NCBI GenBank assembly: GCA_035084275.1
Contig: CM068756.1
Coordinates: 11,780,001-11,827,089, forward strand
DNA from: Hydrolagus colliei
Lineage: Eukaryota
Reading direction: 5' to 3'
Length of the DNA stretch: 47,089 nt
In this document: positions 68-276 of the stretch, piece after piece
Layout of the letters: the number at the start of each line of letters is the position of its first letter
Numbering within the stretch: position 1 is the first letter of the stretch
Translations under genes and position numbers: made by a program
The notes under the pieces: model-generated
Told to the model about the DNA's origin: nothing
Seen by the model: the letters and a program-made list of their open reading frames with translations, nothing else
Database searches by the model: none

Positions 68-276
68 GGCGAGAAATCAGAATTTTCGAGAAGCCCTGAG
101 GTTAAACCTGGAGGATATGACACTGAAGCTCAGATCTGGAATCCCCCCATCAGCAGCCGATGAGTTTGGCGGATTCATACATGAGTACATGAATACCTGT
201 TGGTTTGAAGGACGTGGCAAGACACAGATCAGAGGATCGCACACGCATCCTAGTGCCATTTTGTGAAAAGCAACAG
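68..276 (+). promoter_or_regulatory. Putative promoter and non-coding exon 1 of subfamily A: 3-unit heat shock element (79-93), kappaB-like site (138-147)
   Basis: aGAAt tTTCg aGAAg is a perfect nGAAn inverted triplet; GGAATCCCCC reads GGGGGATTCC on the minus strand; ends at a GC-type donor. Confidence 0.5.

Follow-up and report, generated by a model that had tools for sequence, protein, structure and literature searches.

A duplicated GAA/TTC cassette with heat shock element and GAS-type matches in a tandem array of small orphan genes of Hydrolagus colliei

The locus

The window analysed here, a stretch of 47,089 nucleotides of Hydrolagus colliei (assembly GCA_035084275.1, contig CM068756.1, positions 11,780,001 to 11,827,089), is occupied in its left 35 kb by a recent tandem array in which 5.7- and 6.5-kb blocks are repeated at 97.6-99.3% identity, array copies matching at up to 98-99% across kilobases. 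The array contains 13 promoter-bearing copies of one small, unannotated gene with two predicted exons (Table 1), of two homologous types. Type A comprises A1, five A' copies (8857, 14525, 21043, 27564 and 34102) and three At copies (19732, 26253 and 32783), while the B-type (MCFL) genes are those at 2968, 16082, 22600 and 29121. A and B genes align along promoter, short non-coding exon, intron and ORF.

The gene at the right end of the window is, by sequence comparison, a chondrichthyan TGM2-like gene: the best 13 matches of an exon query were all cartilaginous-fish proteins, and over all exons Callorhinchus is closest (66% versus 47-55% for 12 other fishes). One C-terminal exon used as a query gave 0/30, but a core exon did give matches. 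The copies of its last exons embedded in the array break off where a LINE fragment adjoins them (7785), and antisense or chimeric transcripts could arise from them. A separate and strong GAS-type site, TTCCTGGAA, lies in the TGM2 3' flank (5871, 11546 and 36791). The predicted 3' UTR of TGM2 contains a palindrome, ATACTATACTACTATAGTAGTATAGTAGTAT, that is nearly perfect (6520-6541, 12185-12216 and 37422-37453). Directly after B1, a promoterless 3' half of an A1-like gene (3620-4026) is 94.6% identical to A1, with two in-frame indels. As for interspersed repeats, the LINE fragment at 431..810 is presumably of L2 type and the SINE family of 18467..18810 has 15 matches in the window, where Rfam and ARAGORN found only four tRNA-like SINE heads.

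Table 1. Coordinates of the features discussed in the text.
Feature	Position	Strand	Remarks
HSE, ga spacer	79..93	+	inside cassette 69-101; 172 bp upstream of A1's predicted initiator
Predicted initiator GCCATTTT	255..262	+	invariant in 9/9 A promoters; putative start site
Predicted 5' splice site	277..282	+	GC donor in A1/At, aligned with GTGAGT (8046 etc.) in A'
LINE 3' fragment	431..810	+	flanked by acceptors at 424 (ancestral) and 814 (second)
ORF A1, 144 aa	888..1322	+	AATAAA at 1510; helices predicted at the N-terminus, followed by an Asn-rich tail of low confidence
10-mer TGACTCAGCA	1870..1879; also 4337, 10012, 15746, 22264, 28785, 35257	+	40 bp from C cassette, 7/7 C blocks
Long cassette, block C	1918..1949; also 4385-4416, 10060-10091, 35305-35336	-	perfect HSE + GAS, five GAA/TTC units
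Cassette upstream of B1	2579..2601	+	orthologous; one extra base, HSE register lost; GAS TTCCAAGAA at 2591-2599
Inverted long cassette, B1 promoter	2670..2701	-	perfect HSE 2671-2683 overlapping GAS 2681-2689; 96 bp upstream of 2767
ORF B1, 103 aa	2968..3279	+	
Duplicated last TGM2 exons	6626-7787 and 12301-13458		identical copies of final three to four exons, inside array
HSE, ga spacer	7891..7905	+	A' promoter; 40-bp deletion downstream puts site at -129
ORFs A', 123 aa	8857..9228 and 34102-34473	+	
HSE, ga spacer	13562..13576	+	A' promoter, -129
ORFs A', 128 aa	14525-14911, 21043-21429, 27564-27950	+	
Truncated C cassette remnant	15791..15804; also 22309-22322, 28830-28843	-	core TTC changed to TTT
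Inner cassette B2	15829..15860; also 22347-22378, 28868-28899	-	core TTC changed to TAC, GAS retained
ORFs B2-4, 116 aa	16082-16432, 22600-22950, 29121-29471	+	
HSE, at spacer	18444..18458	+	T before GAA on both strands; SINE pushes site to -510; truncated gene copy
tRNA-derived SINE	18467..18810, 24988-25331, 31518-31862	+	344-345 bp, 9 nt behind HSE in the three At copies
Truncated At ORFs	19732..19980, 26253-26501, 32783-33031	+	initial 45 codons, then LINE sequence
HSE, aa spacer	20040..20054	+	A' promoter, -169; T before middle unit's GAA (minus strand)
HSE, at spacer	24965..24979	+	second SINE-interrupted copy
HSE, aa spacer	26561..26575	+	A' promoter, -169
HSE, at spacer	31495..31509	+	third SINE-interrupted copy
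HSE, ga spacer	33097..33111	+	A' promoter, -169
TGM2-like gene, ten exons	37540..46442	-	right end of window; convergent with array

The small orphan genes and their proteins

Ten intact small ORFs (103-144 aa) lie within 888-34473 and form an undescribed tandem family with a core of a conserved GDRG and an NQNTDASYN-like stretch. The At genes are cut after 45 codons (19864, 26385 and 32915), where the sequence continues into the upstream flank of the A' gene that follows; these copies, which are without their own polyadenylation signal, could act as an alternative promoter by read-through or splicing onto exon 2 of A'. In the ORFs 8/9 indels are in frame versus 1/9 in promoter or intron (p 0.003), and the ORFs stay open at 66-82% nucleotide identity; in a neutral simulation, 100 codons stayed open in just 15-40% of runs per branch of 0.25-0.1. 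By frame retention the downstream ORFs look coding. Against this stand the homologues not found and the dN/dS of 0.74-2.6 in nine pairs, in which a purifying signal is absent and the ratio is at or above 1 in seven; a tenth pair has no synonymous versus eight non-synonymous changes.

No relative of these proteins was found in any of the searches. HMMER over 1.84 billion representative proteins gave no homologue at E up to 0.001, a word-indexed search with a seven-sequence alignment as query gave 0/964 candidates at E up to 1, an exact look-up gave 0/10 and the ESM Atlas a usable match for 0/2 of the small proteins. Pfam gave sub-threshold matches only, with no RHIM among five ORF proteins at E up to 10; the PDB search gave one unrelated match at E 1.5, and RHIM and Z-alpha were absent in both Pfam and PDB. 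The description of the products as aggregation-prone in the sequence-only reading is best regarded as a guess, because behind it stand only an Asn content of 14-18% and a low-confidence AlphaFold model (two N-terminal helices, low-confidence remainder, mean pLDDT 41). The hydrophobic moment, given little weight here, is strong (0.6-0.8) for A/A' alone. The orphan family is likely to be more interesting than the heat shock element (HSE) itself.

Promoter architecture

The GCCATTTT motif of Table 1, which we take to be of the initiator/YY1 type, marks the predicted start of A genes, and in 4/4 B copies a presumed TATA-like box lies about 30 bp before the equivalent point; these core promoter names are our own assignments. 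Predicted acceptors and AATAAA signals complete the small-gene architecture. The 5' splice site switches between GT and GC donors among paralogues in a single alignment column (GC at 277 and in the 18980 region). The intron is without substitutions over 97 positions (291-387).

The distance from HSE to predicted initiator is 129-172 bp in 6/9 A-type copies and 510 bp in the other three, those with a SINE and a truncated ORF; the B promoter cassette lies 96 bp upstream of the TATA-like box (2767 in B1). By chance, a perfect HSE is expected in 0.4-0.5% of 300-bp promoters. The 34-bp block containing the cassette is not clearly more conserved than other promoter columns (2/34 versus 31/161 variable, p 0.077), and the same holds for the HSE cores (0/9 versus 31/161, p 0.37). 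In copies 7891 and 13562, two rearrangements, one each side, end within about 10 nt of the HSE. ISRE-like matches are absent from these promoters.

Fourteen perfect HSE matches of common descent

Nine HSE 15-mers reported by the sequence-only reading were recovered at their positions, four with a ga, two with an aa and three with an at spacer, and each has the three contiguous inverted nGAAn units of the textbook definition. The same reading placed such an element before every A and B copy, labels that we take to mean A1/At and A'. As named here, 9/9 A-type promoters have it, but only 1/4 B-type promoters do, for a total of 10/13 promoter-bearing copies. Scans with consensus patterns detected five further perfect HSEs that had escaped that reading, all on the minus strand (1919, 2671, 4386, 10061 and 35306).

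The 14 matches in the window compare with a shuffled mean of 0.71 (maximum 3 in 100 shuffles), an excess that is inflated because the sites have been multiplied by duplication. When later copies of repeats are masked, 22,861 bases are left, in which 0.27-0.38 perfect HSEs are expected and five remain, all of them relatives. The chance of at least one perfect HSE in this non-redundant sequence is 0.25-0.31, so that one chance origin is unremarkable and what exceeds chance is the promoter position and the clustering with further units.

A cassette in three settings

The nine HSEs are, from sequence alignment, copies of one GAA/TTC cassette of about 30 bp that has been multiplied by recent segmental duplications. 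Three settings contain the cassette: the upstream regions of A and B1, the B promoters, where it is inverted, and an intergenic block (block C) that follows each A gene. Across these settings 27-32 nt of identity are shared, with local scores of 32 and 54 versus shuffled maxima of 30 and 26; scores of the flanks, with the cassette masked, are at background, and homology ends at the cassette. The set comprises 21 copies (18 within two mismatches of the shared 15-mer and three truncated remnants), three 3-mismatch matches near 5800, 11475 and 36720 having been left out as unrelated. The three-unit HSE definition holds in 14/21 copies. Nine copies are HSE-only, five carry HSE and GAS (2671 and the four C blocks), four are GAS-only (2585, 15840, 22358 and 28879) and three are broken.

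HSE and GAS share half-sites and differ in TTC-GAA spacing, which is 2 nt in the former and 3 nt in the latter. STAT sites were called with TTC-N3-GAA (TTCYNRGAA), which we take as the GAS consensus. This form is present in 9/21 copies (the one upstream of B1, the four inner B copies and the four C copies), whereas the nine named A copies have 2-nt spacing and no GAS; an A-type HSE is thus one base away from a GAS site. All nine intact non-A copies have retained GAS, among them the four that have no HSE. Within the window 9/12 TTCYNRGAA sites fall inside the cassette. GAS sites are only mildly enriched (6 versus 2.6 expected, among related copies). In non-redundant sequence a dyad together with GAS occurs 6 times versus 0.40 expected and the five-unit form twice versus 0.000 expected, both counts being of related copies of one origin. 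Sites of kB type are not enriched (2 versus 4.2 expected).

The cassette does not behave as a common interspersed repeat within the window, since 24/32 repeat tails are without it and no copy lies in 38704-47089. Membership in a LINE tail or SINE was also rejected: 8/32 repeat tails are followed by it, all representing one orthologous insertion. In the B1 promoter the two cassettes (2579-2601 and 2679-2701) form a 23-bp inverted repeat with two mismatches, about 77 bp apart. An origin of this pair as a MITE was rejected: no target-site duplication was seen by eye, and the sequence between the arms has its homologue in A promoters without a right arm.

Block C (1570-2010 and six copies) may be regarded as an enhancer-like cluster, judging from its motifs: a presumed MARE-type site, the HSE/GAS cassette, a kB-like 11-mer with one mismatch and an E2F-like site, names that are again our assignments. 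The MARE-type (MARE/ARE-type, we presume) 10-mer TGACTCAGCA occurs once versus 0.09 expected, a match that is post hoc because 12 motifs were scanned. One C copy, at 34954-35400, is 2.2 kb beyond the stop codon of TGM2, and here the array may have captured a 3' enhancer of that gene. Block C is neither an inverted paralogue of a whole promoter, homology being absent outside the cassette, nor a coding gene, the ORF at 1713-1919 not being retained in other C copies.

Does variation spare the cores?

The case for heat induction in the sequence-only reading leaned on variation being confined to the n positions. Within the nine sites this is correct, only positions 88 and 89 varying (2/15 columns), but seven related copies break the HSE: 2585 by an extra base, 15840, 22358 and 28879 by TTC changed to TAC, and 15791, 22309 and 28830 by truncation and TTC changed to TTT. 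The nine copies moreover represent three lineages (inner supports 80-98, one starred), with identities of 97-100% within A' and within At as against 87-95% from one lineage to another, and are not independent evidence of heat induction because they are duplicates. Their spacer differences can be put down to a single A-to-T change plus a G-to-A change at a CpG that took place once or twice, i.e. 2-3 mutation events; copies 20040 and 33097 are identical across 336 downstream columns and yet differ in the spacer, and the A shared by the aa spacers could instead reflect one conversion event. All events would fall on n positions (6/15) by chance with a probability of 0.16 for two events and 0.064 for three, or 0.08-0.21 with CpG weighting.

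Structural work discussed by Feng et al. (PMC8379338) indicates that HSF constrains the TTC-nn-GAA step to pyrimidine-purine and leaves the GAA-nn-TTC step unconstrained, and that a thymine before GAA seems intolerable, as judged from structures. In the nine copies it is the unconstrained step that is fixed and the constrained one that varies, the preferred pyrimidine-purine spacer being present in 0/14 perfect HSEs. T precedes at least one GAA in 5/9 named sites (the middle GAA with the aa spacer, two GAAs with the at spacer), and 4/9 have the a/c/a arrangement. Both derived spacers are therefore predicted to weaken the HSF site, and the weakest predicted form (at) is the one in the three truncated copies with a SINE-displaced site. 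The n-position argument does not hold, because the copies are duplicates with 2-3 events behind them (p 0.06-0.2), the varying spacer is one that HSF constrains, and the derived spacers are predicted to bind HSF less well.

Counted over the whole family, 2/11 substitutions (events counted by eye) fall in cores, which make up 15/26 sites (p 0.009); without CpG events the figure is 1/7 (p 0.026), and with the upstream hexamer, which is just as invariant, assigned to the non-core positions p becomes 0.05-0.09, the range over counting rules being 0.005-0.09. The CpG-mutation argument is itself weakened because CpG depletion is mild (observed/expected 0.63 in the window and 0.92 in the A' promoter).

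A composite stress/cytokine element?

The reading that we favour, though we would put it slightly short of an even chance, is that the cassette in the predicted promoters is a composite HSF/STAT element for stress and cytokine signals, to which HSF, STAT or both would bind. It is suggested by the reciprocal losses, since B2-4 lost the HSE but kept GAS and A lost GAS but kept the HSE. In its favour also count the predicted promoter position, the recurrence in three settings, the five-unit form, the family-wide core bias and the Hsp90 and ZBP1 precedents; against it count the absence of any preferred spacer and the unexceptional conservation of the 34-bp block. The ancestral cassette would have had the 3-nt (GAS) spacing, its long version with an overlapping three-unit HSE, and the A lineage would have gained its perfect HSE once, by a deletion of one base (or 11 bases) that removed GAS, the HSE then being multiplied by segmental duplication. 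A single derived deletion is the parsimonious choice because the three placements have 3 nt and the A clade 2, with the proviso that the placements may not be independent. Following proteotoxic stress, HSF trimers would occupy the copies of the aGAA/cGAA/aGAA form (79, 7891, 13562, 33097, 2671 and those of the four C blocks), and transcription would be stimulated at the initiator, which lies 130-170 bp further downstream. HSF binding would be poorer at the aa and at copies, and B2-4 would respond to JAK-STAT signals only. Heat induction of at least one A gene through the A-type HSE is a somewhat weaker proposition that we hold tentatively.

A dedicated HSF1 element, selected in all nine copies and making the whole family heat-inducible, as the sequence-only reading had it, seems unlikely. 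All nine core bases are retained in 9/9 A-type promoters despite 87-95% promoter identity between lineages, the rearrangements that flank the site in 7891/13562 end about 10 nt or less from it, and B1 and the four C blocks have perfect HSEs too. However, this retention represents only 2-3 events (p 0.06-0.2) and the cores are not significantly less variable than the rest of the promoter; both derived spacers add a T before GAA, judged intolerable from structures (PMC8379338). The site is also lost in 3/4 B genes and persists in three truncated copies.

Equally doubtful is that the cassette simply serves a family of cytokine-inducible immune genes as a STAT (GAS) site, with the HSE a by-product of shared half-sites and the A copies holding a decayed GAS. 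Fast-evolving tandem orphan genes are typical of immune genes, and those described here, with dN/dS at or above 1 in 7/9 pairs, are of this kind. GAS is present in 9/9 intact non-A copies, including the four without HSE, and the B1 promoter has two GAS arms in facing orientation. Even the 2-nt spacing has a precedent, 2-nt spaced sites being among the listed Drosophila STAT92E sites (PMC4414558). A STAT site alone nevertheless leaves unexplained why the long cassette has further GAA/TTC units in register (0.000 expected) and why their changes fall mostly at n positions, and A promoters have retained the 2-nt form over a dS of about 0.15.

That the motif is functionless, a single chance match spread by duplication and short templated insertions, is in our view still more improbable: one perfect HSE in the non-redundant sequence would be unsurprising (P 0.25-0.31), copies are up to 98-99% identical over kilobases with patchy conservation, the G-to-A change recurs at a CpG, and in flies HSF occupied under 15% of the strong motifs (PMC2936546), but a perfect HSE has a chance of only about 0.4-0.5% per 300-bp promoter, the three placements (two of them at predicted promoter-proximal positions), the five-unit cluster and the core-sparing bias are not accounted for, and weak CpG depletion (0.63 and 0.92) undercuts the CpG argument.

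Comparison with known systems

The element resembles canonical HSF1/HSF2 HSEs in having three contiguous alternating units with intact cores in a predicted promoter-proximal position, and an A before the outer GAA units in 6/9 copies. It differs in its tail-to-tail spacer, which is GA, AA or AT and never pyrimidine-purine, in having three in-register units only, and in that its putative target genes are not chaperones.

The Hsp70 promoter has an overlapping STAT/HSE element, and the same arrangement is found at Hsp90. There, STAT sites overlap HSEs at the promoters (PMC5346293), much as STAT- and HSE-type sites of the cassette share bases (5/21 copies carry both), but in H. colliei paralogues split the inputs, with HSE-only in A and GAS-only in B2-4 and the B1 upstream arm. 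The sequence-only reading had called heat inducibility unexpected for non-chaperone proteins. This is overstated because HSF control of genes other than chaperones is common and a RHIM/amyloid-type example is known: the ZBP1 promoter contains ISRE, GAS and HSE, and this non-chaperone RHIM protein is induced by HSF1 in heat stress (PMC9499459). Like ZBP1, the genes of the array are non-chaperone genes with cytokine and heat elements, and their Asn-rich segment loosely recalls amyloid signalling motifs; unlike it, they have no RHIM or Z-alpha match and no ISRE, and encode orphan proteins of 103-144 aa. A third parallel comes from Caenorhabditis, in which Helitrons have spread HSEs to new genes (PMC6927752). 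In both cases DNA rearrangement has increased the number of HSEs and brought them next to lineage-specific genes, but here the spread is by segmental duplication of whole genes, with the cassette outside the flanking LINE and SINE.

How often such motifs are used can be gauged from Drosophila, in which 107/815 strong HSE motifs were bound, those in promoters being bound in 97 cases and free in 39 (PMC2936546), and from the figure of about 10% of genes near bound HSF sites that changed expression (PMC3021535). A description of the locus was not found in literature on cartilaginous-fish HSF1, holocephalan orphan tandem genes, RHIM with HSE, TG2 with HSF1 or STAT spacing, among which there were few subscription titles, and a look-up of five terms in the main text of one chimaera genome paper found none of them. 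The element itself is of a known kind; of more interest are the undescribed orphan family and the possible one-base HSF/STAT switch.

Implications

A more far-reaching idea, which we regard as a long shot, is that these fast-evolving small proteins of the chimaera lineage are stress-triggered immune or cell-death effectors, a single-base indel switching paralogues between STAT and HSF; in this role they would combine an amphipathic N-terminal helix with an Asn-rich amyloid-like tail. If true, heat-only, cytokine-only and dual-input copies would stand side by side as a natural experiment in one-base rewiring. The cassette variants (ga, aa, at, 3-nt spaced, long composite and core-broken) represent a compact natural allelic series. 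The one-base switch, if real, would show plainly how new genes are drawn into a stress regulon and, if not, would be a caution that duplicated motifs inflate enrichment statistics. The cassette offers a first clue to the regulation of a gene family that is undescribed and without homologues in the searches made, in a vertebrate lineage that has received little study.
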